A stretch of 64,000 bases of DNA, from NCBI GenBank assembly GCA_035526765.1, contig DATLBS010000014.1, forward strand, positions 15,612 to 79,611, in the 5' to 3' direction. A program made the position numbers and the translations under genes. The DNA is from Thermoplasmatota archaeon (GTDB lineage Archaea; Thermoplasmatota; E2; JACPAO01; JAHFTW01). Positions within the stretch are counted from its first letter, which is position 1. Every line of letters begins with the position of its first letter. The notes beneath the pieces were generated by a model, which saw only the letters and a list, made by a program, of their open reading frames with translations, was not told the DNA's origin and did not search any database. This document shows positions 21,778 through 63,915 of this stretch, in pieces.

Positions 21778-21790
21778 GTTTCGGCCCCAC

Positions 21791-33612: not shown

Positions 33613-33860
33613 GCTCCGCGTTCGGTTCTGGGCCGATTCGGGGACTTCCTCCCGTGTGGCTGGCGGCGGGGGCGCGTTCGTGAAGCAAGATGGTTCCTAG
33701 TGGGCGGAGCCCACAGCCCCGTGACCACTCGGTGGGTTTCGGCGGGCGCGCTTCGCGCGCCCCAGGCCATTCGCTCGTGACAACAAGAACCCCAAACCGT
33801 GCTGGCCGTGCCACGCGCCGCCGTCGGAGAGGCGGTTGGACTGGAGCCTGCACCAACACG
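33613..33860. repeat. Mosaic intergenic repeat (degenerate GCTCCGCGTTC..GGCGGCGGGGGCG module, GGCGCGC-TTCG-CGCGCC hairpin, CAACAAGAACCCC, then GTGCTGGCCGTGCCACGCGCCGCCGTCGGAG..ACCAACACGCGATG module)
   Basis: Shares segments with 8914-9230 and 44822-44970. Confidence 0.5.
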
Positions 33861-33959
33861 CGATGGGTCGCTGCCGTTTCTGTGCCTTCAGCGGATGACC
33901 AGAAGCGGGATCCTTCGCATCTGGGGAATCTGTGGAACGGCAGGGGCCAAAAACCAGCC

Positions 33960-35579: not shown

Positions 35580-36629
35580 CTAGACCGCGTCTCGGATGCC
35601 GTCTTCCGTCACATTGACCACGGCCTCGCCCTCGGGCAGGTGCGGGGAGTCGACGAGACGGCAGATGCGCTTCCCGCCCTTCGACTTGCGGAGGTAGATG
35701 CGGAACGTGCTGGTGTGGCCCACGATGTGGCCGCCGATGGGGCGGGTGGGGTCGCCGAAGAAGGCATCCGGCTTGGCGGAGACCTGGTTCGTGACGATGA
35801 CGGCCGCGTTGTTGATGCCGCCCAGCCGCTGCAGGTCGTGCATGTGCCGGTTGAGCTTCTGCTGGCGGTCGGCCAGGGTGCCACGGCCCACGAACTCGGC
35901 GCGGAAGTGCGCGGTCAGGGAGTCGACCACGATGAGCTTGATGGGGAAGTCGCGGCAGATCTCCTGGGCGCGCTCGGCCAGCAGCATCTGGTGGTTGGAG
36001 TTGAAGGCGCGCGCGACATGGATCTTCTTCAGGGCTTCCTGGGGGTCCATGCCCATGGCGTTGGCCATCTGGGTGATGCGCTCGGGGCGGAACGTGTTCT
36101 CGGTGTCGATGTAGAGCGCGTGCCCGTTCAGGCCGCCTTCCGCCTCGGGGCGCTGCACGTTGACGGCCAGCTGCATGGCGAACTGGGTCTTGCAGGAGCC
36201 GAACTCGCCGTAGAACTCGGTGATGGACTGGGTCTCGATGCCGCCGCCCATCAGTTCGTCGAAGGCCTTGCTGCCGGTGCCGATCTTGTTGACGGTCTTG
36301 CGGCGCTCGGCCACTTCCAGGCCTGTCTCGAAGCCACCGACGTCGGCCAGCTTGCGGGCCGCGTTGATGATCTTCTGCGCCACGCCTTCGCCGATGTCGC
36401 ACTTCTCGGCGATGTCGCCAGGGGACGCGACGGCGATGGCCATGAGGTCCTCGTAGCCGGCCTCCTTCAGCTTGTCCGCCGTGGCAGGGCCGACGCCGGG
36501 GAGGTCCTCCACCGTCATGCGGATGTGGCCTTCCTTCTTCGGGTCCGCTCGCGCGGCGCTCAGCTCGTTGTCGAAGGTTGCGTCGTAGTCCTCTTCCATG
36601 GCAACCGGGGTTCCGTTCTTCTTGGCCAT
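35580..36629 (-). CDS. radA: DNA repair and recombination protein RadA
   Basis: N-terminal HhH ([23 protein letters not shown]). Walker [10 protein letters not shown], Walker [16 protein letters not shown]. Full RecA fold. Confidence 0.9.
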
Positions 36630-36766
36630 TCGTGGCACCAAGCCCACAAGGCCTGGCCCGCTAGTTAGGCAGGAGGGGCCGGACAGATGAAACTACTCGT
36701 CCGAGGGCTGGCTGGCGCGCGCTGGAGCTGGCCGCCAAGCCCTACCGCCGGCTTTCCTGCACGCGG

Positions 36767-39700
36767 CTACCGCTGGGACTCGTGCTCGCGGATGATCGCG
36801 TCGATGGCCTTGGGGTCGTAGCCGCGCGGCCTGGGAAGCGCCAACGACACGGGCCTGGCAGGGGCCTTCGCCTTGGCCGCCTTCGCCTTGGCGGGACGCG
36901 CCTTGGGGGGCGCATGCCCGGGCTTTCGCGCCTGCGCGGTCGCGGCCGGGGCTTCCCATGGCTCCGCGTCCGATTCCCCGGCCGCAACGCTGGTGTCCCG
37001 GGTTGCGGTCCCGAAGGCGTCCTGCGCGTCGGCGGCCCGCCCTGCCGGCTCCGAGGCCGGAGCGGACGCAGTCGCCTCACGTGCCTCGCGCGCCAACCGC
37101 TTCTCTTCCGCCAGGCGCATCTTCTCCGCCTGCTTCAGCTCGGCGGCGTGCCGCTTCGCAGCCTCCCGCTCCGCGGCCACCCTCTGCTTCTCGGCGGCGG
37201 CGCGTTCCCTCTCTTCGCGGGCACGGACCTGCGCGGCGGCCTTCTCCTCGGCGGCGCGCTGCTTTCCGGCCAACCGCTCCGCCAGAAGCCGCTCCTTCTC
37301 CGCCTGCCGGGCTGCCTTGGCGTCCCGCACGGGCGTCACGGCCTCCTGGAACTCGTGGATGGGGGCCTCGGCGGCCGCGGTCGCGGCAGGGGCGTCGTCC
37401 TCGCCGGCCGGCGCTGCGACCTCGCGGGCCGCCTTCTCCTGCTCGCGCCGCCGGCGCTCGTCCTCCTTGGCCTGCAGGGCCTGGGCCTTCGCCTGGGCAC
37501 GCGCCTCGATCTGGCGGGCCTTCTCGGCCTCCCGCTCGGCGGCCCCTCGCGCCTTCTCCTGCGCGGCGCGTTCCCGGGCCGCTTGGGCCTCCTGGCGCGC
37601 CCGCTCCTTGGCCTGCGCGACGCGCATCTTCTCGGTGGCCTTCTCCTCGGCCTCTCGGGCCCTGGCCGCCTCCTTCTCGGCGGCGGCGCGCTCCTTCTCC
37701 GCCTGCCGCTCGGCGGCCAAGCGCGCCTTCTCGGCCTCGGCCTGCTGCTGCGCACGGGCCTTCTCCTTCTCGGCCTTCAGCTTGGCAGCGGCTTCCGCCT
37801 TCTCCTCCCGTTCCCGCTGCTTGGCGATGCGCGCCTCCTCGCGCAGCCGCGCCTTCTCCTGCTTGGGATCGACCGGCCTGGGTTCGCGCTTCAGCAGCTT
37901 CCCCAATGAGAACCCGCCTTCCTTCGCGGGTCCCGCATCGGCCGTGGTCTCCTCCTTCTTGCCGCGCCTGCCTTTTGGGGCCTCGGCCAACTCAAGTGCA
38001 GGCTCCTCGGCCTGCCGTTTGGCGGCGAGTCTTGCCTCGCGGGCGGCGGCCTTCTCCTCCTCCTTGCGCTCGGCCGCGGCTTGCTTCTCCTCGGCGGCGC
38101 GTTGCTTGGCGACTTCCTTCGCACGGGCGGCCGCTTCCTTCTCGGCAGCCTTGCGGGCCTTCGCGTCCCCTTGCGGTGCCGACCCTTCGGTTGCGTCGGA
38201 GGTGCGCTTGAAACGGGAAAGGAACGACCCTGTGCGTTCCTCGGTGGCTGGCCCGGGGACCTCTTCGGCCTGTTTGCCTGCCCTGCCTTTCTTCGCGGGC
38301 AAGGACTCGATGGGTTCCGCCTCGCGGGGCTCCTCCTTGCGCTTGAGCCGGGACAAGAACGAGCCCTTGGGTTCCTCGTGGGCTGGTTCTACCGCCGGCG
38401 TGGGTTCGGCCTGTTTGCCTGCCGTGCCTTTCTTGGAGGGGGCTTCCTCGATGGCCGGCTCGGCGGTTGCCTCCTTGGGCTTCAGGCGTGACAGGAAGGA
38501 CCCCTTGGGCTCCCCTGGAGCGGGGTCCTGTTCGGCCGGGGGCTCCCGGGCTGCTGCCTTGCCCTTCTTCGCAGGCTTCTCCGGCGTGGCGGGCGCTTCC
38601 TCGGTCGCTTCTGCACCTACCTTGGCAGGCTTGCCGGCCTTCTTGGCGGCACGCTCGTCCTCGATGAGCTTCTGCTTCTCAACCTTCCGCAGCGCCGCTT
38701 CCTCGCGGGCTTTGCGCTGCGACTCCTTGCGGGCCTTGCGCTCCTCCTCCTTCTCGCGGCGCTGCTCCTCCCGCAGGGTGCGGCGGTCGGTGCCGGAGCC
38801 CAGGTCGACCTCGGGGGCAGCCTCGGTTGCGATGACCTCCTCCACGATGCGGAAGCCGGCGGACGTGGTGTACGCGCGCCCGGGCTGGTGGCCGAAGGCA
38901 TAGAGCCGCTCGGCGTCGGACTTCTCGTCCTCGGGCAGCTTCACGAAGGGGCTGCGGCCGTCGGCCAGGCGGGGGGCCTGGTGGCCCTTGCGCTCGTCCT
39001 CGGGCAGTTTGGCGAAGGCGCTGGACCCATCGGGCAGGCGGGGCTTCTCCCGCTCCAGGTGGTCCTCCGGCAGCTTGGCGAAGAGGCTGCTGCCATCGAT
39101 GAGGCGCGGCGGCGCCTTGGAGATCTCCTTCTTGGCCGGCTTGGAGGTGGCCTCCGCGAAGCCCTCCTTGCGGGCGACGATGGACTGCTCCCAGATGCCG
39201 CCCTCGCCGGTGGCCTGCGGGATCTTCTGCGCCACGGCCTCCGACCAGATGCCCTTCGGCTGGCTGCCCTCGCGCGCGGCGTCGCGGGCGCGGCGCTCCT
39301 CCTCTTTCTTGAGCCGGGCATCTTCCTTGGCCTTCTCCTTCTCTTCTTCGGAGCGGCGCTTGGCCTCCGCGGCCTCGGCCTTCGCCCTGGCCTTCAGGTC
39401 CGCCTTCGTCGGCTCGGCCGAGGCAGCAACGGCGGGAGCGTCCTTGGCGTCCTTCGCCGCCTGTTTCTCGGCCAGCATGCGTTCCTTCTCCGCCTTCCTG
39501 GCGGCCTTGGCATCCAGGGGGGCGTCGACCGCGGCAGGGGCGGGCGCAGGGGGTTCCTTGCCGGACTTCGCAGCCTTCTTGGCTTCCTTGGCGGCCAGTC
39601 TCTCGGCCTTGGCGCGTTCCTTCTCCGCCACCTTGGCCTGCTTCGCAGCCAGCTTCGCGGCCTTGGCTTGTTCCTTCTGGGCGAGCTTCTCGGCCTTGGC

Positions 39701-41461
39701 GGCCGCCTTGGGGTCCGGCACGTCGGCCGCCGCTGGCGTGGGCGGAGTGGGGGGCGCGAGGGGCGCGGCTGGCGCTTCCGTCTGCAGCTTCCCCTTGGTC
39801 CTGCGCAGTTCCTGCTGGACCTTCACGTCGGCGGTGCGGACGCTTCCACCCAGGATCGCCTGCGCGTCCGCGACCCACGCGGCCGCCGTCGCGTCGTCCT
39901 GGCCTGCCGCCTTGGCCACCAGGGCCAAGTCCGCCGCGGCCAGGGTCTGGAGCGTGAGGATCCCCTTCTTGCCAAGCTTCTTGGCCTGAGCCGGCCCGAT
40001 CCCCTTCACGTCGGTGACCGGGCGTTCGTGGGGCGTCGCGCTGCCGCTGGCCCCTTGGGACATGGTCGCGGCGGGTGCGGCAGCCGTTTGCGTGGCTTGC
40101 CTGATTTCCAGGGCCGACAGTTTGGCGCGGGCCATCGCCTCCTTCTCCTCCTGCCTGCGTTGCTGGGCGGCCTCTTTCTCGGCCTGCTTGGCGCGGCGTG
40201 CCTCCTCTTTTGCGGCGGCGGCCGCCTGGGCCTCCTGCTCGGCAAGCTGGCGTTTGGCCTCCTTCTCGGCCTTCGCGTTCGCCACGGCGATGCGCTTCTC
40301 TTCCTCGCGGGCCGCCTTGGCGGCGGCCTTCTCGGCAAGGGCGGCCTCTTTCTCACGCTGCTTCTGCGCCTTGGCCTCTGCCTTCAGGTCGGGCAGGGGG
40401 GCAGCGGGGGGTGCCTCAAGGACCGGTTGAGGTTCAGCGGTGGGCGGTGCGGCCTTGGCGGCGGCCTTCGCTGCGCGCTCGGCCTCCTTGGCCTGCTGCG
40501 CTGCCTGCTTCGCACGTGCGGCCTCCTCCGCGGCGGCCGCCTTGGCCAGCCGCTTCTGTTCCCTGGCATCCAGCGCGGGTGCGGCCGCGGCGGCGCCGGC
40601 TGGGGCCGGGGCATCGTCGCGGGCCAGGCCCAGCAACGACTTGCATTTTGGACAGGTGGCCTGCGTCGCGTCGGCGGCGACTGGGAACACGGTCCGGCAG
40701 TTGGCGCACTCGACGGTCTCGCCGCCGGGCGCCGCCTTGGCCGCCTTCGCGAGGCGCTTCTGCTCGGCCGCGCGCTCCCTGGCCGCCTTCTTCTCGGCGG
40801 CCGCGGCCTTGGCAGCGGCCTCCTTCCCGCGCCGCGCCGCCTCCTTCGCGGCGGCTGCCTGCGCCTTTGCGTCGTCCTTGGCCGGGGCGGCCGGGGCGCC
40901 AGCCTCGGACGGGGCGGGGGAGGCCGCGGCCTTGGCGGCGTCGGCGCCGCGCCTCGCTTCCTCCTTCTGGCGCTCGCGGGCCTCGGCGGCGGCCAGCTTG
41001 GCGGCGGCCTTCTCGGCCTTGGCGGCTTCCTTCGCCCGAGCCTTCCCTTCCGCAGCCTGCTTCTTGGCCTCCAGCCGGGCCCTGGCGGCTGCGGCCTTGT
41101 CGTCGGGATCTGCCTGGCTGGCTTCGGCCGCTGCCCTGGGCTTGCGGCGGAACAGTCCCGCCTTCTCGCGGGGGGGCTCGTGCAGCTCGACCTTCGGCGC
41201 GGCGGGCTCCTTGCGGCGGAAGCGGTGCAGGAACCCGCGCTCGGCCTCCTTCACGGCTTCCTTGGCAAGCTGCTTGTCGTCGAGGTCGGCCTTCTCGACG
41301 AACTGGATCTGCTCCTCCTCGTCCTGGTCGACCGCGGGCTCGGGCAGTCCCTGGACCTTCCGCAGGGCCCGGATCCCCACGTCGTCCGCCTTGGGGCGTG
41401 GGGTCCTGCCAGGCTTGCGGGAGGTCTTGGCGGGCTTGGACGGCTGGGTCTTGCGGGCCAC
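36767..41461 (-). CDS. Giant (roughly 1565 aa) Ala/Lys/Glu/Arg-rich (single-alpha-helix-like ER/K) protein with Zn ribbon, HhH motif and internal tandem peptide repeats
   Basis: Putative GTG start at 41461, with a GGAG 10 nt upstream and a CTTTATCTAT TATA-like box 45 nt upstream. Zn ribbon CANCRTVFPV...CPKCKS. HhH VTDVKGIGPAQAKKLGKKGILTLQTLAAADL. 3x DGSS.FAKLPED and 3x KGSFLSRLK.K repeats. Long AKEAAKAEKAA..-type low-complexity helices. Overlapping plus-strand ORFs are antisense shadows. Confidence 0.7.
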   Translation of the reverse strand: MARKTQPSKPAKTSRKPGRTPRPKADDVGIRALRKVQGLPEPAVDQDEEEQIQFVEKADLDDKQLAKEAVKEAERGFLHRFRRKEPAAPKVELHEPPREKAGLFRRKPRAAAEASQADPDDKAAAARARLEAKKQAAEGKARAKEAAKAEKAAAKLAAAEARERQKEEARRGADAAKAAASPAPSEAGAPAAPAKDDAKAQAAAAKEAARRGKEAAAKAAAAEKKAARERAAEQKRLAKAAKAAPGGETVECANCRTVFPVAADATQATCPKCKSLLGLARDDAPAPAGAAAAAPALDAREQKRLAKAAAAEEAARAKQAAQQAKEAERAAKAAAKAAPPTAEPQPVLEAPPAAPLPDLKAEAKAQKQREKEAALAEKAAAKAAREEEKRIAVANAKAEKEAKRQLAEQEAQAAAAAKEEARRAKQAEKEAAQQRRQEEKEAMARAKLSALEIRQATQTAAAPAATMSQGASGSATPHERPVTDVKGIGPAQAKKLGKKGILTLQTLAAADLALVAKAAGQDDATAAAWVADAQAILGGSVRTADVKVQQELRRTKGKLQTEAPAAPLAPPTPPTPAAADVPDPKAAAKAEKLAQKEQAKAAKLAAKQAKVAEKERAKAERLAAKEAKKAAKSGKEPPAPAPAAVDAPLDAKAARKAEKERMLAEKQAAKDAKDAPAVAASAEPTKADLKARAKAEAAEAKRRSEEEKEKAKEDARLKKEEERRARDAAREGSQPKGIWSEAVAQKIPQATGEGGIWEQSIVARKEGFAEATSKPAKKEISKAPPRLIDGSSLFAKLPEDHLEREKPRLPDGSSAFAKLPEDERKGHQAPRLADGRSPFVKLPEDEKSDAERLYAFGHQPGRAYTTSAGFRIVEEVIATEAAPEVDLGSGTDRRTLREEQRREKEEERKARKESQRKAREEAALRKVEKQKLIEDERAAKKAGKPAKVGAEATEEAPATPEKPAKKGKAAAREPPAEQDPAPGEPKGSFLSRLKPKEATAEPAIEEAPSKKGTAGKQAEPTPAVEPAHEEPKGSFLSRLKRKEEPREAEPIESLPAKKGRAGKQAEEVPGPATEERTGSFLSRFKRTSDATEGSAPQGDAKARKAAEKEAAARAKEVAKQRAAEEKQAAAERKEEEKAAAREARLAAKRQAEEPALELAEAPKGRRGKKEETTADAGPAKEGGFSLGKLLKREPRPVDPKQEKARLREEARIAKQREREEKAEAAAKLKAEKEKARAQQQAEAEKARLAAERQAEKERAAAEKEAARAREAEEKATEKMRVAQAKERARQEAQAARERAAQEKARGAAEREAEKARQIEARAQAKAQALQAKEDERRRREQEKAAREVAAPAGEDDAPAATAAAEAPIHEFQEAVTPVRDAKAARQAEKERLLAERLAGKQRAAEEKAAAQVRAREERERAAAEKQRVAAEREAAKRHAAELKQAEKMRLAEEKRLAREAREATASAPASEPAGRAADAQDAFGTATRDTSVAAGESDAEPWEAPAATAQARKPGHAPPKARPAKAKAAKAKAPARPVSLALPRPRGYDPKAIDAIIREHESQR

Positions 41462-41505
41462 GTTGATTCGTCCACTCCAGGAGGCACGCGGCACACCCGA
41501 GGGAC

Positions 41506-41515
41506 ATAGATAAAG
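41506..41515 (-). promoter_or_regulatory. TATA-like box (CTTTATCTAT on minus strand) for the giant gene, in a divergent intergenic region shared with polB
   Basis: It is the only AT-rich octamer in a GC-rich spacer, and its position relative to the GTG start is appropriate. Confidence 0.3.
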
Positions 41516-41732
41516 GATATCTGGAAGCCTGGAAGCCGGGACGGTCGGATGGCCGCACTGCGCAGGCGCGCCCGTTTGGGGTAGCCACGGAGCGCACGGA
41601 AAACACGGAGGGCTTCGCTGTCGTGCGCAGGCCACGCTCCGTGGACTCCGTTCCCTCCGTGGCTTGCCGTGACCATGGAACATCCTGGCCGTTGGCCCAA
41701 ACCCCTAAGCCCGTCGGCCAACTCGCCGCGGC

Positions 41733-44700
41733 GTGTCGGTCCTGCTCAGCCTCTCGAACAGCCACCTGTTCTGGCAGGGGCGGGAGCCGGAGCCCATCGA
41801 GAAGCACCATCGCCCCTTCTTCCTCGCGTTCCCGCAAGACCCCCATGAGCCCATCGGCAAGGCGCATGCCAGGCTGGTGGCGTTGGTGGGTGCCGCGCAG
41901 GGGAGGTCGCCGGACGAGGACCCCTTGGCCAAGGCGCTGGAGGTGCACGAGCCCATCCAGTACAGGTCGTTCTGGAACCATGGCCAGCACCGCATGGCGA
42001 TCCCCGTGGTGGCGCGGCGGCCCTTCTGGATCCCGGACATCTCGGAGGCCCTGTTCTTCACGCATGGCTTCTACACCTGCGAGCACGACATCCCGTACAC
42101 GGAGCGCGCCAACGCCGACCTCGCGGCGGAGAAGGGCTGGTGGCTGCTGGACACGCGCGGGCAGCCCAACAAGCTCAACGTGATGACGTACGACATCGAG
42201 ACGACGCAGTACGGCAAGGGCCCGGCGCCTCCCTTGCCCACGCGTCCTGGCGCGGCGGCCCCCTCCATCCCCATCGACATCATCGGCTATTCCCACTTCG
42301 ACCTCGAGTACTCCGCCGCCAAGGACCTCGACACGGAGCAGTTCGACTTCCAGTTCCGCCACCTCCCCAACGACTGGGCCGAGCGCGAGGTCGTGCAGCT
42401 CACCTCCCGCAACCTGGACGAGGAGCTGGACCACCTGCAGCAGTTCACGGAGCATGCCGTGAAGCAGGACATCATCGCGGGCCACAACATCCTGGGCTTC
42501 GACAACAAGCAGATCCACGACCGTCTGGTGGAGTTGCTGCAGAAGGACCAGCGGCGGCAGACCCTGTCACCGAAGATGCGCGAATGGTTCCAGCGCTTCA
42601 CGAACGTCCACAGCCGTCCCGACCGCAGTTTCCATTTCGGCACGAGCCAGGACATCGCGACGTGGCACCCCATCACGCTGGACACGTTCCACGCGGCGCG
42701 CAAGTTCTTCTTCTTCCACGACGACTTCACCCTGAAGGGCCTTGCCCCTTGGCTGGGCATCAACGTCCCCGATCGCCTTTACCTCGAATCGCACGAGATG
42801 GGGCTCGACGCCAAGACGCTGCTGTACAACAAGCACGACGTCCAGGAGCAGATGGGCATCACGCAGATGCTCATCGCGCAGGCGCTCCCCCTCTGCTTCA
42901 CCGTCAACCTCCCGCTCGACGACCTGCTGACCGGGGGCAACACGAAGATGTGGGACCACATGGCCTTCATCCGCGCCCGCCGCCAGAGGCGCTTCATGCC
43001 GGCGACCTCCCGCGCCCAGGCCATCGCGCGCGCCGTGCAGCGCGTGCTGCCGCGCACGCCGTTCCCCACGCGCGAGCAGGTGAGCGAGGCGGTGCGCCAG
43101 CTGCCGCCCGAGGAGCGGGCCACGAGCGCGAACAAGGAGATCGTGCGCGTCGCGAAGCAGGGACCCGAGATGCCGTTCTGGTGCGAGCACCCGGGCGTCA
43201 TCGTGAAGGCGGACCCCACGACGTCGGGTGACCCCGATGACCCGAACGGCTACGCCATCCCCGGAGGCATGACGCTCAAGCCCGACTCGGAGCTCAAGTC
43301 CCACTTCGTGCCGTGGTACCACGTGGTCGCGGCGGACGTGGGCGCCATGTACCCGACGATCCTCAAGGCCCGCAACCTCACGGCCGACACGGTGCGGCCG
43401 GCGCGGGCGGGGGAGACGCCGGACGACTGGATCTGGCTGTTCGAGCTGGACGAGGTGTTCGCCAGCAGTGGGAGATACGTCGTCAAGAAGGCGGATGCGG
43501 CGGACAAGTTCACGAAGGGCAAGGGATGGCTCATCGGCGTCAAGCACTCGGGCGAGCCAGGCATGGTCAACCTCGCGATGACGGGCATCCTGAGCACCAT
43601 CCAGAAAGTGAAGGACGAACGTGCCCGGGCCAAGAAGGAAGGTCGCCCGAAGGACGCCATCCGCATCCTCGACATGACGTACCAGAGCCTGAAAGCGGCC
43701 CGCAACGCCGGCACGCACGGCATCCTCGTCGCCGTCAACGTCTCCTGCCGCCAGTTCAACGTGTGGGGCGGCGCCAACATCACGACGATCGGCCAGAAGA
43801 TCCTGCACGACACCCTCACCGATTGGGAAGGCCAGGGCATCCGCGTGGTCTACGGCGACACGGACGGCATCTACATGGGCTGCAGCAAATCGGCGGGGAA
43901 CATCCCCCACTTCGCCGAGGCGCTGGGCGCCGACGTGGAGCCGCAGGCGGACAAGTGGATCACGATGCCGGACCAGGCCCTCGCGGCGGTGGCGGCGGCG
44001 AACAAGAAGTGGCGCGACGAACTGCAGTACGAGGGGTTCGAGCTGGAGGCGGAGACGCATGACGCCATGGTCTTCGTCGTGCACAAGAACTACCTCATCT
44101 TCGACGCCAACCCCAAGGGCGACGGCATCCTCCTCGAGACGAAGGGGAACAACTTCAAGGCCTCCGACAAGGCGCCCTTGACGCAGGAGGTCATGCGCAA
44201 CATCATGGCCCGGGCGCTGCGGGAGGTCAGTGCCTGGGACTCGGAGGAGAAGGCGCGCGAGGCCATGAAGACCGCCATCAAGAAGGCGACGCGCGAGGTG
44301 ATGGGGACCATCCAGGTCGCGAAGACCGAGCGGCGTGACCTCATCCTGCGCCAGTCCGTGGGCTCCATCAAGAGCTACGAGCCGAACCCCGACGGCACCC
44401 TCCGGAGCCAGGCCGTCCGCACCGCCGCGCTGGAGGACCTGCTGGGAGAGCCGATCACCTCCACGCGCAAGATGCGCTTCATCGTCTGCAAGACCCCTCT
44501 GCCCCTGTACACGAGCCCCGACCGGCAGCAGGCCAAGCAGCAGGAGCTGGCCCGCAGCGGCCACCAATTGGTCGTGAAGGAGCCGAAGAACCGCGGCCTC
44601 AAGCCCATCGAGTACATGTGGCCCGTCGAAAGGGTCGACCCCGCCGCCATCGACTGGGTGTGGTACAAGTCCATGGTGGAGGACTACGTGAAGGGGGCGT

Positions 44701-44756
44701 TCGGGTTCGATTCCCTGGAGCTCGTGGTGCAGCGGGACCTGTCGAGCTGGTTCTGA
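41733..44756 (+). CDS. polB: Family B DNA polymerase, divergent
   Basis: Exo I MTYDIETTQYG. Exo II IAGHNILGFDNKQI. Exo III LLYNKHDVQE. Pol motif A VVAADVGAMYPTIL. Motif C VYGDTDGIYMG. Motif B region atypical (LKAARNAGTHGIL). Confidence 0.8.
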   Translation: MSVLLSLSNSHLFWQGREPEPIEKHHRPFFLAFPQDPHEPIGKAHARLVALVGAAQGRSPDEDPLAKALEVHEPIQYRSFWNHGQHRMAIPVVARRPFWIPDISEALFFTHGFYTCEHDIPYTERANADLAAEKGWWLLDTRGQPNKLNVMTYDIETTQYGKGPAPPLPTRPGAAAPSIPIDIIGYSHFDLEYSAAKDLDTEQFDFQFRHLPNDWAEREVVQLTSRNLDEELDHLQQFTEHAVKQDIIAGHNILGFDNKQIHDRLVELLQKDQRRQTLSPKMREWFQRFTNVHSRPDRSFHFGTSQDIATWHPITLDTFHAARKFFFFHDDFTLKGLAPWLGINVPDRLYLESHEMGLDAKTLLYNKHDVQEQMGITQMLIAQALPLCFTVNLPLDDLLTGGNTKMWDHMAFIRARRQRRFMPATSRAQAIARAVQRVLPRTPFPTREQVSEAVRQLPPEERATSANKEIVRVAKQGPEMPFWCEHPGVIVKADPTTSGDPDDPNGYAIPGGMTLKPDSELKSHFVPWYHVVAADVGAMYPTILKARNLTADTVRPARAGETPDDWIWLFELDEVFASSGRYVVKKADAADKFTKGKGWLIGVKHSGEPGMVNLAMTGILSTIQKVKDERARAKKEGRPKDAIRILDMTYQSLKAARNAGTHGILVAVNVSCRQFNVWGGANITTIGQKILHDTLTDWEGQGIRVVYGDTDGIYMGCSKSAGNIPHFAEALGADVEPQADKWITMPDQALAAVAAANKKWRDELQYEGFELEAETHDAMVFVVHKNYLIFDANPKGDGILLETKGNNFKASDKAPLTQEVMRNIMARALREVSAWDSEEKAREAMKTAIKKATREVMGTIQVAKTERRDLILRQSVGSIKSYEPNPDGTLRSQAVRTAALEDLLGEPITSTRKMRFIVCKTPLPLYTSPDRQQAKQQELARSGHQLVVKEPKNRGLKPIEYMWPVERVDPAAIDWVWYKSMVEDYVKGAFGFDSLELVVQRDLSSWF

Positions 44757-44772
44757 GCTTCGGCGCCCAACC

Positions 44773-44970
44773 GAACCACAGATTCCACGGATTTCACAGA
44801 CCCATGTTCTCAGGCCGTCATGCGCTCCGCGTTCAATTCTGGACCGATTCCAGTCCAACACCCCTGTGACGGCGGGGGCGTCGAACACCAGAAGCGAGCC
44901 GTGCTGGCCGTGCCACGCGCCGCCGTCGGAGGCGCCGGTAAACCAGAGCCTGTACCAACACGCGATGCCC
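44773..44970. repeat. Composite intergenic repeat 3' of polB: CACAGAT-array module, then GCGCTCCGCGTTCAATTCTGGA module, then GTGCTGGCCGTGCCACGCG module
   Basis: Shares modules with 21791, 63800-63915, 8914 and 33613-33860. Confidence 0.55.
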
Positions 44971-45061
44971 AGACTGCGTGCCGCAACACGTTGTCGGTGA
45001 CCCAGATGGCTTTGGCGTCGCATCCCGGCAACCTCAAGTGCAAGCACCCACGCTTCCCCGC

Positions 45062-45403
45062 ATGCGCTGGTCCTGGCCCTCGTGGCTTGCCATCATCTTC
45101 GGCGCCCTGCTGGCCGTGGCTGCCTTCTGGCTCACCAACGACCAGCACGATGTCGCCTACCTCACGGGCCTCCTCATCCCGGGGGCTATCCTCATGGGTG
45201 CTGGCCTCCACGCCCTGCAGGCCAGCTACGATTCCTGGTGCGGCGACGACTGCTACGGGTACGGTGGCGGTTCGTGCGGGTGCGACCACTGCGGCGACTG
45301 CTCGGGCGGCGACTGTTGCGGCCACTGCGGCTGCAGCAACATGCGCACGGACGGGCAGGGGCACGACGGCCACGGCCACGACCACGGCGAGCACAGCCAC
45401 TGA
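45062..45403 (+). CDS. Small membrane protein with Cys/Gly-rich and His/Asp-rich (metal-binding-like) C-terminal tail
   Basis: MRWSWPSWLAIIFGALLAVAAFWL... two TM helices. CGDDCYGYGGGSCGCDHCGDCSGGDCCGHCGC....GQGHDGHGHDHGEHSH. Confidence 0.5.
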   Translation: MRWSWPSWLAIIFGALLAVAAFWLTNDQHDVAYLTGLLIPGAILMGAGLHALQASYDSWCGDDCYGYGGGSCGCDHCGDCSGGDCCGHCGCSNMRTDGQGHDGHGHDHGEHSH

Positions 45404-45600
45404 TGCGCATCCTCTGGGCCGTCCTGGCCGCCGTCGTGGTCGTGGCGATGAGCGTCTACCTGTCCTCCGCGTACCGCAACCCCATGTACGCCGTCCTGGG
45501 CCTCGCCGCTGGACTCGTCGTGGTCATCGGGGGCCTTGCCAGCATGATGGTCAAGCGCCGGTCGGGGCCGCCCCCCTCATCCCCGCCCCCGCCCACCTGA
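45403..45600 (+). CDS. Small membrane protein (65 aa), TGATG-coupled to the previous gene
   Basis: MRILWAVLAAVVVVAMSVYLSSAYRNPMYAVLGLAAGLVVVIGGLASMM. Confidence 0.4.
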   Translation: MRILWAVLAAVVVVAMSVYLSSAYRNPMYAVLGLAAGLVVVIGGLASMMVKRRSGPPPSSPPPPT

Positions 45601-45680
45601 CCGTCGAGGCCTTCAGCGATGCGGGAAGCCGCAAAGCCAAAGCACGGCCGCAGGCCTCGCCCCGCGTGAAGCATTGGCTG

Positions 45681-46139
45681 ATGAAGTCCGAGCCCGAGTC
45701 GTACTCCATCGACGACCTGGCGCGCGACGGCACGACCGACTGGACCGGCGTCCGGAACTTCAAGGCCCGCAACTGGATGAAGGAGATGCAGGTCGGCGAC
45801 AAGGTCCTCTTCTACCACAGCAACGCCGATCCTCCCGGCGCCGCCGGTGTGGCCGAGGTCTGCGCAGTGGCCCACGCCGACCGCACCCAGTACGATGCCA
45901 GATCGGACTACTTCGAGCCCAAGGCCACCCCGGAGAAGCCGTACTGGTACTGCCCGGACATCAGGTTCGTGGCGAAGTTCACCCGCTTCGTCCCTCTGCA
46001 GGAATTGCGCGACAGCGATGCGCTGAACGGCATGCTGCTCACGTCCGGCAAGGCGTCACGCCTTTCGGTGCAGCCGGTGGACAAGAAGCACTTCGATGCG
46101 ATCGTCAAGATGGGCAGCAAGGTTTCGCCCCCCACGTAA
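45681..46139 (+). CDS. EVE (PUA-like) domain protein
   Basis: HWLMKSEPESYSIDDL..WTGVRNFKARNWMKEMQVGDKVLFYHSN.. is the typical EVE/Thy1-like fold signature. Confidence 0.7.
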   Translation: MKSEPESYSIDDLARDGTTDWTGVRNFKARNWMKEMQVGDKVLFYHSNADPPGAAGVAEVCAVAHADRTQYDARSDYFEPKATPEKPYWYCPDIRFVAKFTRFVPLQELRDSDALNGMLLTSGKASRLSVQPVDKKHFDAIVKMGSKVSPPT

Positions 46140-46340
46140 CCACAGATGGCACAGATGCCCAAGATGCCCGCCCAGCCCCCTGAGCAGGGCTTGGTGGTGC
46201 TCCAAATGCCCTTCAGTGGATTGGTCTGGGCGGTCGCGTTCGCGCAGCGAACCCAGCGCGCGCAGCGCAAGGGGACGAAGCCGGCCGCGCGGTGAGCGCG
46301 GCCACGATGCTGCGACCGCCCCGTCCTCCGAGGGGTACGA
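46136..46340. repeat. Left copy of an approximately 200-bp direct repeat (CACAGAT module + structured W element) bounding the lower-GC island
   Basis: About 75% identical to 60127-60335 over its length. Contains the identical 28-mer GCCGGCCGCGCGGTGAGCGCGGCCACG. Confidence 0.6.
46228..46321. ncRNA. Candidate structured RNA 'W' (copy A): closing stem GGGCGGTCGC/GCGACCGCCC, hairpin GTTCGC/GCGAAC, hairpin GGCCGCGC-GGTGA-GCGCGGCC
   Basis: Two stems show compensatory changes relative to copy B (60224-60316). No match to tRNA or 5S recognised. Confidence 0.45.
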
Positions 46341-46391
46341 GGCCCGGAGGTAGAGGACCCTCTTTGGTGGTAATCTCACCTCCCCTGTTGG

Positions 46392-46907
46392 ATGCGGTTC
46401 TTCGGAGTTGATCCCATGAAACCCCAAAAACACCCCCGAACAGCAGACATCGCCCGACTTGTCGCGCGAGCGTCCGATGCGAACCGGCCCCAATTGGAAG
46501 CCCACATCGAATGGAACCGGGGCCAGAACCAAATGAGCGAGAACGGCGTGTACAGTTTTGCGCGCCCCATCGTCCACGCGGACTCGATCCTGGAAGGCAA
46601 GCCCTTCCACACGACAAAAACCCAGGACTGGCTCAAGGTGGTCTCCGTGTTCCGGACCATCTACAGCCCCCACAGCCTCCGGATCAGGGTCGTGAATCTG
46701 CGAAAACATGTGCGGTACTGCTTCGACGTGGACGACCTGGAAAAAGCCGAGGAGTTGGGCAAGAAAGAGGGCCGCGCCATGGAGAAGGCCCTTTGGGTCA
46801 AGCGCGAGAAGCCTCAGGTCGTGGGCCAAGTCATCCTGGAAACGGACGTGGATGCCATGCTGGCGGCAATCGCGGCGCGCAACAGCCTAGGGGGCAAAAC
46901 CAGATGA
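46392..46907 (+). CDS. Hypothetical protein (island cargo)
   Basis: ORF in the lower-GC region. No motifs recognised. Confidence 0.4.
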   Translation: MRFFGVDPMKPQKHPRTADIARLVARASDANRPQLEAHIEWNRGQNQMSENGVYSFARPIVHADSILEGKPFHTTKTQDWLKVVSVFRTIYSPHSLRIRVVNLRKHVRYCFDVDDLEKAEELGKKEGRAMEKALWVKREKPQVVGQVILETDVDAMLAAIAARNSLGGKTR

Positions 46908-47297
46908 TTTCTGCACGTTCTTGTTCAAATTTCCGGGTGCGTAACGATTACACAATTGCCTGTTCCAGTGTATTGCCACTGGGGACTCGTCGGAACCCAT
47001 ACGGCCGCCCCAGTCTTGTGGGCATCATTGTATGGACGGACCAAATTGAAGGTGAGCGGGTAAGAGTCAGTGCCGTCCGGGGACATCGCGCATGGACCAA
47101 AAGAAAGGCAAGCTGGGGAATCCTCCGGACAAATGGCCACTTCGCGGATTTCGACCGGGGGCGGGGGTAGACCTGGCAAGGGTTGAGCGTTGGCCGGAGA
47201 CATGCAAAACAGCATGGCGAGAAGGCAACATAGAATTCCTAGAGGGGTTCCGTTTGGCATAGAGTTCAGTTTCCTTGGGATGTTTTTTTGGAGATTG

Positions 47298-48152
47298 TCA
47301 CGGCAAATCCATGATGACTTTGAGCGTTGCAATGGTGGTCTCAGTTGTTTGGGATCCTGCTCCGTAGTCAGCCACCGCCCCTACCATCCCGCCGTGTATC
47401 GTTAGTGGCCCGATTGTTCCTACGAACGTCAGAATCTCGTAGAATGTTTCGTTGAGCCAAGCATGTCGGGTGCCGTCGCTTTGGTGCCATCGGCCGCCGG
47501 TTATGGCGTTCCCCTGCGGAGGGCTTGTCTCTCCTGCCCCAATGAAATCATACAGGACGTCATCTTGGGTTGCCACGTGGTATTGCAGAGTTTGCCCAGT
47601 CACGGCGCCTTCCACGGTCCCCAGCCGAGCATGGAAGCCTGCTTTTTGGAACAAGGAGACCATTGATTGGTTTGCAGCAATCAATTCCAGGAGATAGAAG
47701 TCGCCTCGATTCGGGTCATGAGATTGCACGTCGGCCGGAACTTTTGCGGGCGCCGTCAAGGTTGCGTACCTAATGTCGTGAAGCACTTCCAGGCTGTCGA
47801 CCACCCCGGTGTCACAAAGGAAAATGCTGAAGTGGGCGAGTTCTAGATTCCCAGCCACGGGATCTGGCCGGTATCCATCTGGAAGCTGGGCCTTCATCTT
47901 GTCCGCGTCCGCGGCCAGGCTAGTGTAGTAGGCTTGGCAGCCGTTCATTTCCAGCTTCTTCGGGGATGCAGCAAGAACAAGGTTGCAAGCCGTGGAATTC
48001 TGCTTGCAAGAGTCAGGCGTCGATGTGGTGTCAAGCGTGGCTGTCGTCGAGGCGGTGCCGGAAGAGGTTGTGATTGGATTGTTGGTTCGTGAGCCGCAAC
48101 CTGCTAAGGAAAGCATGAGGACCAGGATGCAAGGGATCCAAGCAGTGCGCAT
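47298..48152 (-). CDS. Lipoprotein, hypothetical (island cargo)
   Basis: MRTAWIPCILVLMLSLAGCGS lipobox. Thr/Ser-rich linker. Abuts the upstream regulator gene. Confidence 0.55.
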   Translation of the reverse strand: MRTAWIPCILVLMLSLAGCGSRTNNPITTSSGTASTTATLDTTSTPDSCKQNSTACNLVLAASPKKLEMNGCQAYYTSLAADADKMKAQLPDGYRPDPVAGNLELAHFSIFLCDTGVVDSLEVLHDIRYATLTAPAKVPADVQSHDPNRGDFYLLELIAANQSMVSLFQKAGFHARLGTVEGAVTGQTLQYHVATQDDVLYDFIGAGETSPPQGNAITGGRWHQSDGTRHAWLNETFYEILTFVGTIGPLTIHGGMVGAVADYGAGSQTTETTIATLKVIMDLP

Positions 48153-48153
48153 G

Positions 48154-49839
48154 TTATGCATCTCCAGGATGTGTGGTCCTACTTTGCGTTTCCGGGGTTC
48201 GAATCCAGGGTAGCGCAATGGAAGCCGGATTGCTCGGGCCAGCCAATCGGGGGTGCAGCGCCCAGAGCGTGGTGCGGCCGGTGCGCGAACGCAGCAAGAC
48301 TCCATCGGCTTCCATCCGGCGCATGTGGTACGAGAAAAGGCTAGTTTTCGGCACGGGACTCCCGTGCAAGCCCAATGCCTTGCGAATCGAATCCGCGTCC
48401 ATCGGCGTGGCGGCTTGGCCTAGGATTTCGATGATGCTCTTGCGGATGGGGTGGCGCGAATCGGCCAGGGCATTCTGCACAATCCTATCAGATGCCCCCA
48501 GGGGGTAAGCGGGCTCGAAGTGTTGGCGGTGGCCGTGCGAATACACTTTGATGAGATCCGCGTCCGCAAGGATCTGGGCATGGAAATTGAGTGAAGAACG
48601 ACGCAAGCCCACGGTCTGCATTAGCTGCGGGGCGCCAATTCCGGGAACTTCCCGGATTAGTTTCAGCAGCTGGACGCGCGTGGGGTGTTCCAGGGGTTGG
48701 GCACGAGAATTTCTTAGCAGGAAAAACCGGATTCCCTTCGCAACGCTCGACGAGGAGGCAACAAGCCATGCAAGTAGACTGAAGCCGGCAAGGGCTCCTA
48801 GGGCCGGCAGCCATTCCCGAGTGCCAAAGACTGCCACCCCATCAATTCCAAGGTAGCTCGCTTCGCCATCCAATTTCCACTGGCTGCTGGGCGCCCCATA
48901 CCTGCCTTGGAACTTGAAGTCGCCAATGGTTTGAACAAGACCCAATTCTTTGTTCACGAATCGGGCGTCGACGCTCGTGCTCCCAACGTCAGCAAAGGCG
49001 ATGTCGCCGTCGTAATGACCCTCAAGGGATTCAAGAAGAGGATTCCAAAGACCGCCGCGGTCTTGTTGAAGATGAATCGCCGTTGAGGGGGCCGTGATGA
49101 GCACGGCAATACGGTCGTAGTATCCCGTCGTGGAATAGCCCAAGGGGTCGCTGAACTCTGTGCCCTGGTGGGGATAGATTCCGGTGTGGATAACGCGATC
49201 CCCACCCAGGGCAACGGATGACCCATACGCAAGAATCGCGAATTCCCCAGTGTATGACCGGGTATCGGCTTGTTCGTGATTCCAGCGGCCCGCTTGCTCG
49301 TAAGGGGCATAGTGGCGAGGCGCTTCATTGGTGCCTTGCAGTGTAAATTCATAGCGGTGATCTGGAATCTCAATCGACTGCTTCCCGGTCTCATCAAGCT
49401 GCAATCGGATGGCTTGATGCTCAGTCGGGGGGAGGAAACGAACGGCCGAAATGATTTGCTCGTTCCGGATCTCAACGGTACCAGTAAAAGCAAAGTCTTC
49501 GTTCTTCTGTTCCGGAGGCTCAGGGGCGTACGCAGCCCCTTGGCCCACGGGGCTCTCTCTGCTTGTTCTGGCCTTGGCCAGAGGATCCGAAAGAATTTGG
49601 ATGTGGGCGCCCGTAACGGAAAAATTGGCTGTGATGTTTCCTGAGTGCCAGAAGGATTCGAAGGCGATGCCGGCCAAGTTCGCGAGGCCCTGGTACCGGC
49701 CGTTCAAAGCAAGCGTGCCTGAGGAAACGATGTCGCCTGAAACATGGGTCGTATCAGGAGGCTTGGCGATGGCGGCCGGCAAGAAAGCCAGGATGCAGCA
49801 CGCCGCCGCAGCGACAATCTGAACCCTGCTTCCGGACAT
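48154..49839 (-). CDS. Membrane-tethered one-component regulator: signal peptide, extracellular domain, single TM, cytoplasmic tandem winged-helix domains
   Basis: Signal peptide MSGSRVQIVAAAACCILAFLPAAIA. TM helix LPALGALAGFSLLAWLVASS. C-terminal LIREVPGIGAPQLMQTVGLRRSSLNFHAQILADADLI plus a second wHTH. The cytoplasmic part is homologous to 28522-29070. Confidence 0.65.
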   Translation of the reverse strand: MSGSRVQIVAAAACCILAFLPAAIAKPPDTTHVSGDIVSSGTLALNGRYQGLANLAGIAFESFWHSGNITANFSVTGAHIQILSDPLAKARTSRESPVGQGAAYAPEPPEQKNEDFAFTGTVEIRNEQIISAVRFLPPTEHQAIRLQLDETGKQSIEIPDHRYEFTLQGTNEAPRHYAPYEQAGRWNHEQADTRSYTGEFAILAYGSSVALGGDRVIHTGIYPHQGTEFSDPLGYSTTGYYDRIAVLITAPSTAIHLQQDRGGLWNPLLESLEGHYDGDIAFADVGSTSVDARFVNKELGLVQTIGDFKFQGRYGAPSSQWKLDGEASYLGIDGVAVFGTREWLPALGALAGFSLLAWLVASSSSVAKGIRFFLLRNSRAQPLEHPTRVQLLKLIREVPGIGAPQLMQTVGLRRSSLNFHAQILADADLIKVYSHGHRQHFEPAYPLGASDRIVQNALADSRHPIRKSIIEILGQAATPMDADSIRKALGLHGSPVPKTSLFSYHMRRMEADGVLLRSRTGRTTLWALHPRLAGPSNPASIALPWIRTPETQSRTTHPGDA

Positions 49840-50001
49840 CGCGGCAACCACTCGCGTGTCCCTATAAATCTCTTGGCGCAGCGTTTGCTGGATTGTTCCA
49901 ATCAACGTTACACAGTTGATGATATACCCTGACTCCATCGCCGCGTTTCATATGGTTACGTCCGCGCCCTTCGCTTTGGTTCCCCTTCCACAGGAGGAAC
50001 G

Positions 50002-50613
50002 ATGAACGTCTGGTGGATGCTCTGCCTGGCGGGTGCCACCTGCGGGGCGGTGTTCGTCGCCTCGCATCTTCTTGGTCCCTATTTTCGGTGGTGGCGAGAG
50101 CAACCCCGCGAAACCCCCTTGGAACGCCGCCAACGCCGGCTCGCGAACGCCGTCGAGAACTCCTTCGGAGCAGCCGCGGACGGGCACCCCTGGGATGCCC
50201 GTTGGTGGGGTGCCAAGGCATGCCGCTTGGACCCGCGCGCACCATCGGCCATGCATTCGCTTGGACACGCCTGGATGCTCTGCAACCGACCCGTCCTGGC
50301 GTTGAAGCACCTTGAGCGCGCCGTCGTCTTGTTGGACGAGGGTGTGTGCGCGGATGACCCAATGGAGCTCACGGCGGAGATTGCCGTCGATGCCAGCCGA
50401 TGCTGCGCCATGCTCCGTCTCGATTGCACCGACCCTGTGGAGAAAGAACAGTGGGGGGAGGGCGTGCTGCGCTGGGCCCGCGTTGCCATCGAATCGAAAC
50501 CTGACGTGGCCCAGGAACTCCGTTCCAACCACTACTTGCGGGATCTAGAATCCGCGATCCACGTCCTGTTGACCAGCCTTGACTCCAAGGCGCAACCCCT
50601 GGGGATCCGCTAA
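50002..50613 (+). CDS. N-terminally anchored helical-repeat (TPR-like) protein
   Basis: MNVWWMLCLAGATCGAVFVASHLL TM anchor. Helical repeats follow. Confidence 0.4.
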   Translation: MNVWWMLCLAGATCGAVFVASHLLGPYFRWWREQPRETPLERRQRRLANAVENSFGAAADGHPWDARWWGAKACRLDPRAPSAMHSLGHAWMLCNRPVLALKHLERAVVLLDEGVCADDPMELTAEIAVDASRCCAMLRLDCTDPVEKEQWGEGVLRWARVAIESKPDVAQELRSNHYLRDLESAIHVLLTSLDSKAQPLGIR

Positions 50614-50875
50614 TGCTTGCGCCTCTGCTTTTCCACGCGTCACCTCAAAACGGGAAACCCTCGGGTTCGGGGCTGCCGCCGAGCAAACGCGTGGAATGTG
50701 TGTCATGTTGCTCGCGTGGCAGCCCCGTTTTCCTCTCTAATCCCCAACTTGCAACTGGCAATCCCATGCCAAGAGCCCACCGTCAATTTGAATCTATGAA
50801 ACCGGCACCCGCATCGTCATCCCCATCTCGCCGGGTCCTCTTCCCCATCCCAAAACATCAGGAGATTGACCACCC

Positions 50876-55744: not shown

Positions 55745-55889
55745 TGAGGACGGGCTACTGACCCTCACTCCGGATATCACAGTATTCGGGAATTTCCTGG
55801 ACAATGCCCGCGTCCACTCCGCCAACCCAAGCGGCGTTGTCATGCCCCCCACAACTAGCGTGCCGCGACAACTTGCTGGTGGCTGCTAA
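55566..55889 (+). other. Probable authentic C-terminal continuation of the giant repeat protein in the +1 frame (frameshift, pseudogene or sequencing indel), carrying the conserved LPRIEMRGVGDPNDEDGLLTLTPDITVFGNFLDNARVH module
   Basis: From about 55625 the sequence reads ADGRTYYGQNSIQDEPIGFAASPCASGLPRIEMRGVGDPNDEDGLLTLTPDITVFGNFLDNARVHSANPSG.., which matches the repeat-protein style (DPNDEDG). Confidence 0.5.
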
Positions 55890-56894: not shown

Positions 56895-57424
56895 GCCCCG
56901 TTGGATTTACCGATGAACGAGTTTTGCTGACGTTGACGCCAAACATCGCGATCTTCGGGAACTTCCTTACGCAAGCGCGCGAGCACGGCATGCTACTCAA
57001 TTTTCTATCCGCACAATCGGGGTTGCCAAAAAAGGAATTGCGGGGGCCGATGAGACCGCGTCCTCGTTTCTACGGCCTGATTCTTTGTTTCGGCGTCCTT
57101 CTTGCGTTTGCCATTGTGTTTGGGAACACCTTTCTCCTTGCCATGAACCCATCTTTCGGCGGGGGTCACGTGCGGCACGCTATCTTGGTCATGGACCGGG
57201 GTGCCCTTGATAACCAGACGGCAAGAGCCCTACTGCCCCCAGCAGACTGGAACGCTTCCGGCAAAGTACAGACCAAACTGCTTGAGGTCATCTTCGCGGA
57301 CCCCACACAGATCGTCCTGGGTGATGTACCAGACCTGCCCAGGCAGGTTCTTGAGATCCCACGAACGGAAATCACATCCATCATCTGGATGGACGAGTCC
57401 GCCTTGTTCAAGACTGGCACGTAA
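56819..57424 (+). CDS. Small single-TM protein whose N-terminus carries the second copy of the conserved module (FPRIVSPVGFTDERVLLTLTPNIAIFGNFLTQAREH)
   Basis: Module conserved with synonymous DNA differences relative to 55704-55817, implying the frame is coding. TM FYGLILCFGVLLAFAIVFGNTFLLAM. The start is uncertain and the gene overlaps the 3' end of the upstream gene. Confidence 0.4.
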   Translation: MDDNSCLQTPIWVACPLAEPFPRIVSPVGFTDERVLLTLTPNIAIFGNFLTQAREHGMLLNFLSAQSGLPKKELRGPMRPRPRFYGLILCFGVLLAFAIVFGNTFLLAMNPSFGGGHVRHAILVMDRGALDNQTARALLPPADWNASGKVQTKLLEVIFADPTQIVLGDVPDLPRQVLEIPRTEITSIIWMDESALFKTGT

Positions 57425-63799: not shown

Positions 63800-63915
63800 C
63801 GAACCAGATTCCACAGAACCATGTTCGGTTCTTGATTGCCGGGCGCTCCGCGTTCAATTCTGGATCGATTCTAGTCTAACACCCCTGTGACGGCGGGGGC
63901 GTCCAGCACCAGAGA
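63800..63915. repeat. Intergenic repeat 3' of sufS: CACAGA module followed by GCGCTCCGCGTTCAATTCTGGA..AACACCCCTGTGACGGCGGGGGCG module
   Basis: Near-identical to 44822-44880 and 8914-8975. Confidence 0.5.

Follow-up and report, generated by a model that had tools for sequence, protein, structure and literature searches.

A 64,000-nucleotide stretch of contig DATLBS010000014.1 from a Thermoplasmatota archaeon (GenBank assembly GCA_035526765.1), here called the window, carries a gene, polB, for a very divergent family B DNA polymerase (PolB). With a probability of about 0.8, this gene is the vertically inherited chromosomal PolB of an uncultured Thermoplasmatota lineage, and it most probably represents the archaeal PolB group B8. 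The family to which it belongs extends over terrestrial relatives of high guanine-plus-cytosine (GC) content and the sedimentary Thermoprofundales, and is marked by a Thr-His form of polymerase motif B. The gene is located as follows.

41733..44756, + strand: polB, family B DNA polymerase of 1007 amino acids (aa), open reading frame (ORF) with a GTG start

The 1007-aa product exactly matches GenBank entry HUR61661.1 (P0001), which is annotated as 'DNA polymerase elongation subunit (family B)' on an 83-kb contig of a Candidatus Thermoplasmatota metagenome-assembled genome (MAG). The GTG start is backed by homologues that align from residues 1–4, and L4, L5 and S8 are conserved near the N-terminus. 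Two Pfam domains pass their cut-off of 23 bits marginally, DNA_pol_B (PF00136) with 28.1 bits and DNA_pol_B_exo1 (PF03104) with 24.0 bits. The NCBIfam B-family models reach 15–25 bits against cut-offs of 240–1435: the equivalogs (PolB3/PolB1; PRK05761, PRK05762) score 25.2 bits at best where 570–1435 are needed, and the superfamily model TIGR00592 scores 15.2 bits where 240 are needed. In a single-sequence search of the PDB the best match is the Pyrobaculum PolB 5mdn (E = 2.8e-4). With both Pfam domains barely above threshold and the NCBIfam models far below it, the product is a very divergent family B DNA polymerase, as had been proposed in an earlier reading of the window made from its letters and ORFs without database searches (the sequence-only reading).

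Conservation of the catalytic motifs was read from an alignment of 111 full-length family members. All six motif sites can be read in the translation; those of the exonuclease (Exo I–III), of polymerase motifs A and C, of the KxY-region equivalent and of the C-terminus are the following.

42183..42209, + strand: Exo I, aa 151–159 MTYDIETTQ (YDIETT, aa 153–158); D154 and E156 invariant
42471..42515, + strand: Exo II, aa 247–261 IIAGHNILGFDNKQI (GHNILGFD, aa 250–257); G250, H251, N252, F256 and D257 invariant
42819..42851, + strand: Exo III, aa 363–373 LLYNKHDVQEQ (YNKHD, aa 365–369); Y365 and D369 invariant
43323..43376, + strand: motif A, aa 531–548 VVAADVGAMYPTILKARN (DVGAMYPT, aa 535–542); D535 and Y540 invariant
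43842..43877, + strand: motif C, aa 704–715 RVVYGDTDGIYM (YGDTDG, aa 707–712); D709 and D711 invariant
44139..44159, + strand: KxY-region equivalent, aa 803–809 TKGNNFK; K804, G805, N806, N807 and F808 invariant
44730..44753, + strand: sequence resembling a PCNA-interacting protein (PIP) box, Q1000-R-D-L1003-S-S-W1006-F1007, predicted to bind PCNA; W1006 invariant, Q1000 and L1003 nearly so

The hallmarks of family B are thus present: DxE in Exo I, Nx2-3FD in Exo II, Yx3D in Exo III, and the aspartates of motif A (canonically Dx2SLYPS) and of the DTD in motif C. D535 of motif A is the catalytic residue and Y540 the steric gate, and K654, R657 and N658 are likewise invariant across the 111 members. 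The sequence-only reading was right to call Exo I–III and motifs A and C recognisable, their key residues being invariant throughout. The pattern Qxx[LIMV]xx[FWYM][FWYLM] lies inside the last 20 residues of 134 of 148 family members, where it takes the form Q-x-x-[LI]-x-x-W-[FML]. The gene encodes an intact PolB architecture with two active sites, which is under strong purifying selection. Such a product would be an active, primer-dependent and proofreading DNA polymerase, tethered to PCNA through its PIP box, and would serve the replication or the repair of the chromosome, or both, presumably together with PolD.

Motif B departs from the canonical K-x3-N-S-x-Y-G, K654 and N658 being retained.

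43692..43721, + strand: motif B variant K654-A-A-R657-N658-A-G-T661-H662-G663 (KAARNAGTHG, aa 654–663), placed by alignments and an AlphaFold2 model

H662 stands opposite the canonical Tyr, with a one-residue gap after N-A, both in the HMMER alignment with 5mdn and in the BLASTP alignment with the outgroup polymerase P0292; G660 is the one-residue insertion. The form K-x-x-R-N-A-G-T-H-G is found in all 111 members, apart from one Thr-to-Ser variant, and the most distant representatives (~25–30% identity) have K-x-x-R-N-[AS]-[GL]-T-H-G. In the nearest outgroups motif B is still K-G-L-R-N-A-[AI]-[YF]-G. Such constancy within the family marks it as a fixed derived synapomorphy and not as decay; 'degenerate', as the sequence-only reading described it, is the wrong word for a form kept in all relatives examined, down to ~25% identity. 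In the RB69 polymerase, K560 and N564 bind the incoming deoxynucleoside triphosphate (dNTP) and Y567 touches the nascent base pair on its minor-groove side. By analogy, K654 and N658 would bind the incoming dNTP, and His662, possibly with Thr661, would replace the role of Tyr at the nascent base pair. The substitution may alter fidelity or substrate tolerance, and a fixed, unusual change at this fidelity-determining position is a target for mutagenesis.

The AlphaFold2 model (pLDDT 84.6, pTM 0.74) shows the full fold of N-terminal, exonuclease and palm-fingers-thumb domains. Its fingers, the part for which structure prediction had been suggested, consist of two long helices (aa 611–636 and 640–665), and motif B forms the C-terminal end of the second. 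The top Foldseek matches are archaeal B3 polymerases (E ~1e-23, target-normalised TM 0.72–0.75, 14% identity), followed by the polymerase of African swine fever virus and the yeast Pol epsilon core (Pol2 core at rank 39). The product is ~230 residues longer than B3 enzymes.

Inteins of ~400–450 aa, precisely inserted, occur in polB homologues. At least seven members (P0017, P0027, P0075, P0087, P0091, P0139, and P0141) carry one in motif C, at YGD^TDG, one member (P0110) carries one in motif B, at NAG^THG, and P0159 and P0178 contain several. In the motif B intein, the Thr of the family-specific Thr-His is the +1 nucleophile. Inteins are typical of essential replication genes, and PolB3 genes carry up to three, mostly at sites common to archaea (Makarova, 2014; PMC4104785).

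A word-indexed protein search returned 224 relatives, of which the best 120, from which identities were taken, are 43–83% identical to the polB product and mostly full-length. In a scan of GTDB, 211 species representatives matched, of which 80 were retained; taxa were drawn from 79 listed loci and synteny from 81 related loci. The family is therefore present in at least 211 GTDB species, and all 79 loci listed come from uncultured Thermoplasmatota MAGs. No cultivated organism is found among the best 120 protein matches or the 79 of 211 genome loci listed. The loci include the Thermoprofundales MAGs SG8-52-3 (L046), SM1-50 (L064), M11B2D (L068), and 3300003432D (L061), and the proteins of the high-GC terrestrial sister clade that contains polB are only 43–47% identical to those of Thermoprofundales. 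Among 1.84 billion cluster representatives, a profile built from 29 members matched 429 at E<=1e-3, a number that fell to 69 at E<=1e-30. Scores exceed 360 bits for full-length members, and no PolB outside the family scores above 77 bits. The family is sharply isolated from other PolBs.

A few loci are labelled 'Halobacteriales', 'Methanobacteriota' or 'bacterium' in public records; 'bacterium' or 'uncultured Halobacteriales archaeon' is the label of L008 (JAZJZE010000005.1), L025, L026, L028, L034, L081, and P0056. Given PolB identities of 76–78% and shared synteny, these are probably mislabelled high-GC Thermoplasmatota MAGs.

The surroundings of polB are those of a chromosomal gene, and the genes of the window include those for FtsZ, enolase, S3Ae, L15e, an Obg-like GTPase, TatD, and RadA. 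The last of these is the upstream neighbour of polB in the closest relatives.

35580..36647, - strand: radA, Rad51/RecA family with an N-terminal helix-hairpin-helix (HhH), adjoining polB divergently in the closest relatives L003 and L004

In L003 and L004, whose PolBs are 76–78% identical to that of the window, the order GTPase-ORF-L15e-ORF-CPxCG-ORF-radA<>polB is kept and radA and polB are 0.1–0.6 kb apart. The GC content at third codon positions (GC3) of polB is 0.95, as compared with 0.88–0.98 in neighbouring core genes. In ~17 related species of the high-identity clade, polB comes last in a tandem with orc1/cdc6 and the gene of a PCMT-type methyltransferase (orc1/cdc6-PCMT-polB), which may be origin-proximal; most close relatives show this linkage. 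The tandem is exemplified by L001/L035 (7958–12997) and is also seen in L005, L006, L008, L010–L013, L017, L018, L020, L025–L027, L078, and L080. One relative with this cluster is JAXDQS010000001.1. In the Thermoprofundales-type clade, which includes three complete chromosomes of 1.8–2.3 Mb (CP070798.1, CP070724.1, and CP070836.1), the context is another one but no less stable, with a gene of the histone-deacetylase family in 36 loci and a cytidylyltransferase gene in 27. Synteny, the orc1/cdc6-polB tandem, host-like codon composition, inteins, and complete chromosomes together argue for a genuine, vertically inherited archaeal chromosomal group and not for contamination or a viral passenger. 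Of the outcome that the sequence-only reading had named as refuting it, part has come about: the protein groups with the host lineage's chromosomal PolB and its motif B is conserved, though in the non-canonical form described above.

Archaeal PolB groups B4–B10 were added to B1–B3 by Kazlauskas, Krupovic, Guglielmini, Forterre, and Venclovas (2020; NAR 48:10142; PMC7544198). Three of the groups, B4, B8, and B9, occur in Thermoplasmatota or close to them. B8 is described there as 'present in all MAGs of DHVEG-1', known from MAGs only, absent from Thermoplasma acidophilum, and placed in an EpsilonN-like clade, and its archaeal origin is left 'to be confirmed' (PMC7544198). SG8-52-3, SM1-50, M11B2D, and 3300003432D are Thermoprofundales MAGs (PMC6461988), and Thermoprofundales, MBG-D, DHVEG-1, and GTDB class E2 are names of the same group (PMC9585477). 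The polB family is most probably B8, because its taxonomic distribution matches and the other groups are excluded: B8 is confined to uncultured Thermoplasmatota, every member of the polB family among the loci listed comes from a MAG, and both are present in Thermoprofundales MAGs. They differ in that the Thr-His motif B, the PIP box, the cdc6 linkage, and the intein sites go unmentioned in the main text of the 2020 paper (PMC7544198), beyond which no literature on B8 or on Thermoprofundales polymerases turned up.

The other groups are excluded as follows, their definitions being those of the survey (PMC7544198). B4 occurs in Thermoplasmatota including the cultivated Thermoplasma acidophilum, and belongs to a Delta-like clade whose Exo I, Exo III, and motif A contain conserved Cys; no member of the polB family has Cys in any of the three, and B4 and the Delta-like clade are rejected. 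The PolII-like clade (E. coli Pol II, B5, B7, T4-like) is defined by an Exo II 'GWN' with a conserved Trp and is rejected as well, Exo II of the family being GHN with H251 invariant. The polymerases of T4/RB69 gp43 type, which provide the best profile match in both the PDB and PHROGs, with marginal scores and mainly through the exonuclease domain, differ from the family by the same clade-defining GWN. PolB2 has an unconserved Exo I, no Exo III, a single motif C Asp, and a D(K/R) motif (PMC7544198); it is rejected since the family has kept Exo I–III intact, together with the two aspartates of motif C. B9, with only two annotated sequences (PMC7544198), is too small for proteins that were already in GenBank in 2016–2018.

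Among polymerases of known structure, PolB3 enzymes (Pfu, KOD, 9N; Pyrobaculum calidifontis 5mdn) have the nearest folds and share with the family the domain order, active Exo I–III, a C-terminal PIP box, and inteins at motif B and motif C sites. The identity is 14–16%. B3 polymerases have DFxSLYPS in motif A and DTDS in motif C, whereas the family has DVGAMYP and YGDTDG, and its motif B has His for Tyr and one inserted residue. For the PolB3-like paralog that the sequence-only reading had offered as an option, the lines of evidence diverge: by fold the solved B3 enzymes are nearest, by sequence all B3 models stay far below their cut-offs. The nearest outgroup is a cluster of archaeal PolBs with RLI06850.1 from Candidatus Bathyarchaeota (P0236/P0292; 71–77 bits), which shares the GHNIL of Exo II, YN[KE]HDV of Exo III, K-G-L-R-N-A of motif B, and Y-x-DTDG-x-Y of motif C. 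This cluster differs from the family in that the identity is ~25% over parts only, the length is 762 aa, and motif B retains an aromatic residue in the canonical spacing N-A-x-Y/F-G; among solved structures the cluster is itself closest to B3 enzymes. None of the nearest outgroup PolBs reached an NCBIfam equivalog cut-off.

Motif A of Pol epsilon reads DV-x-x-MYP, its motif C DTDG, and its Exo I FDIETT. The family shares the motif A and motif C forms with the Pol2 sequence, which would agree with the EpsilonN-like placement of B8; the sequence searches do not single out Pol epsilon. The family differs from Pol epsilon in having no C-terminal Zn or Fe-S domain, and the glutamate typical of motif C in PolEpsilonN/B10/G3 is replaced by Gly (YGDTDG). 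In the PDB, the family profile matches RB69 gp43 best (44 bits, E 6e-11, mainly the exonuclease domain), followed by Pol alpha (32 bits), Pyrococcus and Pyrobaculum B3 enzymes (~31 bits), Sulfolobus B1 (24.5 bits), and E. coli Pol II (23.7 bits). In PHROGs it matches the phage DNA polymerase family phrog_262 (55 bits, exonuclease region). The PDB matches neither confirm nor contradict the published EpsilonN-like placement of B8.

Several points weigh against the identification of polB as the chromosomal, B8-type polymerase of its lineage. The assignment to B8 is built on a matching distribution and the exclusion of other groups. Sequence affinities are mixed, RB69 gp43 and PHROG 262 coming out best by way of the exonuclease domain, and Pol epsilon is absent from the 60 best PDB profile matches. 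The cdc6 linkage is broken in this genome and in its two closest relatives, L003 and L004, where radA lies upstream. Polymerase activity is deduced from conserved residues only. As to function, the sequence-only reading had offered 'main PolB of a deep-branching lineage' as one possibility, and this remains the best fit in so far as polB is a conserved, syntenic and host-like chromosomal gene; the word 'main' is not established, the search for other PolBs having covered the window and the flanks of the loci. A tblastn search in which 39 diverse PolBs served as queries found no second PolB in the 64-kb window or in any flank of the 81 loci.

Three other views of the gene have to be weighed, two of which concern its function. 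The departure of motif B from K-x3-N-S-x-Y-G and the very low Pfam and NCBIfam scores might be taken as signs of an inactivated or structural paralog with a broken motif B, comparable to PolB2 as first described or to the C-terminal half of Pol epsilon. This is highly improbable and is rejected, as the catalytic residues D154/E156, D257, Y365/D369, D535/Y540, K654/N658, and D709/D711 are all invariant, the invariance of the motif B variant itself indicates selection on function, and inteins interrupt motifs B and C as they do in active replicative PolBs. An active PolB with an accessory role, in repair, Okazaki-fragment maturation, or lagging-strand help, with PolD as the essential replicase as in Thermococcales, is by contrast a serious possibility, at somewhat less than even odds. 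It agrees with the position of polB near radA in this genome, with PolD being the main replicase outside Crenarchaeota (PMC7544198), and with the assistance of Thermococcales PolB in lagging-strand synthesis (PMC13136892). The orc1/cdc6-PCMT-polB tandem in ~17 species and the inteins nevertheless suggest a core replication role, and in Halobacterium PolB and PolD are both essential (PMC7544198); the observations agree with either role. The strongest form of a core role, in which a whole class of uncultured archaea relies on a PolB with Thr-His motif B as its principal, origin-linked replicase, is unlikely. Were it true, the rebuilt sensor of the nascent base pair would give a distinctive fidelity or substrate tolerance, and the enzyme would present a B-family active site redesigned by nature, of interest for evolution as well as for biotechnology.

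The third view, that polB lies within an integrated mobile element (casposon, provirus, or plasmid) of which composite repeats form the ends, is the least credible of all. It starts from two intergenic repeats of one dispersed family.

33613..33865, no strand: left composite intergenic repeat
44757..44967, no strand: right composite intergenic repeat, directly 3' of polB

A direct repeat of 69 nt, 87% identical (33797–33865 / 44899–44967), and a 27-nt module are common to both, so that the cluster of radA, a giant ORF, and polB is flanked by it. Phage PolB profiles fit the exonuclease domain slightly better than Pfam does, and Kazlauskas et al. suggest ancient mobile elements or extinct lineages as the source of B4–B10 (PMC7544198). 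The repeats do exist on both sides of the gene, as the sequence-only reading had pointed out, but their modules recur at no fewer than five other intergenic sites of the window, at about 8.9, 9.2, 12.6, 21.8, and 63.8 kb, and do not specifically bracket the cluster; as att sites or terminal repeats of an element they are rejected. The bracketed segment carries radA and host genes, and in L003 and L004 the gene order runs through the repeat positions. Moreover, GC3 of polB is host-like, its chromosomal positions are stable in dozens of species, and no integrase, Cas1 or other element genes are present among the neighbours scanned. No relative of polB was found in 50,697 phage records (tblastn) or in a pattern scan of IMG/VR, and BFVD holds generic viral PolB folds only, at 10–15% identity. 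With housekeeping neighbours and dispersed repeats, a recent origin from a mobile element, an option in the sequence-only reading, is not supported and is largely refuted.

The gene was already annotated in GenBank and is very probably a member of a group named in 2020. The added value is modest and lies in four points: a motif B with an invariant Thr-His, a PIP box, linkage to cdc6, and syntenic evidence for an archaeal chromosomal nature. Minor PolB groups B4–B10 are known from sequence only, and in debates on the origin of the eukaryotic replisome the replicative polymerases of archaea hold a central place.

Around polB, the radA/HhH neighbourhood noticed in the sequence-only reading is present, with RadA on the - strand and an HhH domain within the giant protein, from which polB is indeed divergently transcribed with 49 bp between the called starts.

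36767..41683, - strand: repetitive Ala/Lys/Glu-rich ORF of 1638 aa with HhH_5 (aa 555–608), a Zn ribbon (~aa 315–348), and internal repeats
41575..41672, no strand: imperfect palindrome/hairpin of 98 nt (inverted repeat I10), minimum free energy -57.1 kcal/mol, z = -5.3
44820..46139, + strand: EVE-domain gene (domain at aa 284–431; true start probably later), found downstream of polB in 13 related loci

No homologue of the 1638-aa ORF occurs in any of the 81 related loci. As radA and polB are separated by only 0.1–0.6 kb in L003 and L004, this 4.9-kb ORF between them is specific to this genome. Its first ~70 codons look non-coding and overlap the strong 98-nt hairpin; translation probably begins downstream of the called ATG, and the real spacer between polB and the giant ORF is, given the non-coding look of this 5' end, probably >49 bp. 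The hairpin, which lies 61–158 nt upstream of the polB start and within the 5' part of the giant ORF as called, is present as a single copy in the window and may be a regulatory or protein-binding element.

The dispersed repeat sites comprise, besides the two next to the cluster, ~8907–9222, 12599–12734, 21780–21895, and 63807–63978. The modules measure 27–137 nt, are 81–93% identical, and are partly arranged in inverted pairs; they are not found in the related loci and may be akin to miniature inverted-repeat transposable elements (MITE-like) or to repetitive extragenic palindromes (REP-like).

Further downstream, a low-GC island extends over ~46000–58000, with a GC content of 0.58 as against 0.68 and GC3 values of 0.6–0.77 as against >0.9. 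It contains a gene for a 1622-aa protein with bacterial TSP3 repeats (50876–55744), one for an HTH_20 protein (48154–49938, - strand), and several further ORFs without a family match. The genes at 60.4–63.8 kb are only 1–7 kb from polB in relatives, and the island at 46–58 kb is therefore an insertion. A second HhH gene of the window encodes a 445-aa protein with DUF4332 and HhH_5 (13933–15270, - strand), which has partial matches just upstream of radA in L003 and L004.

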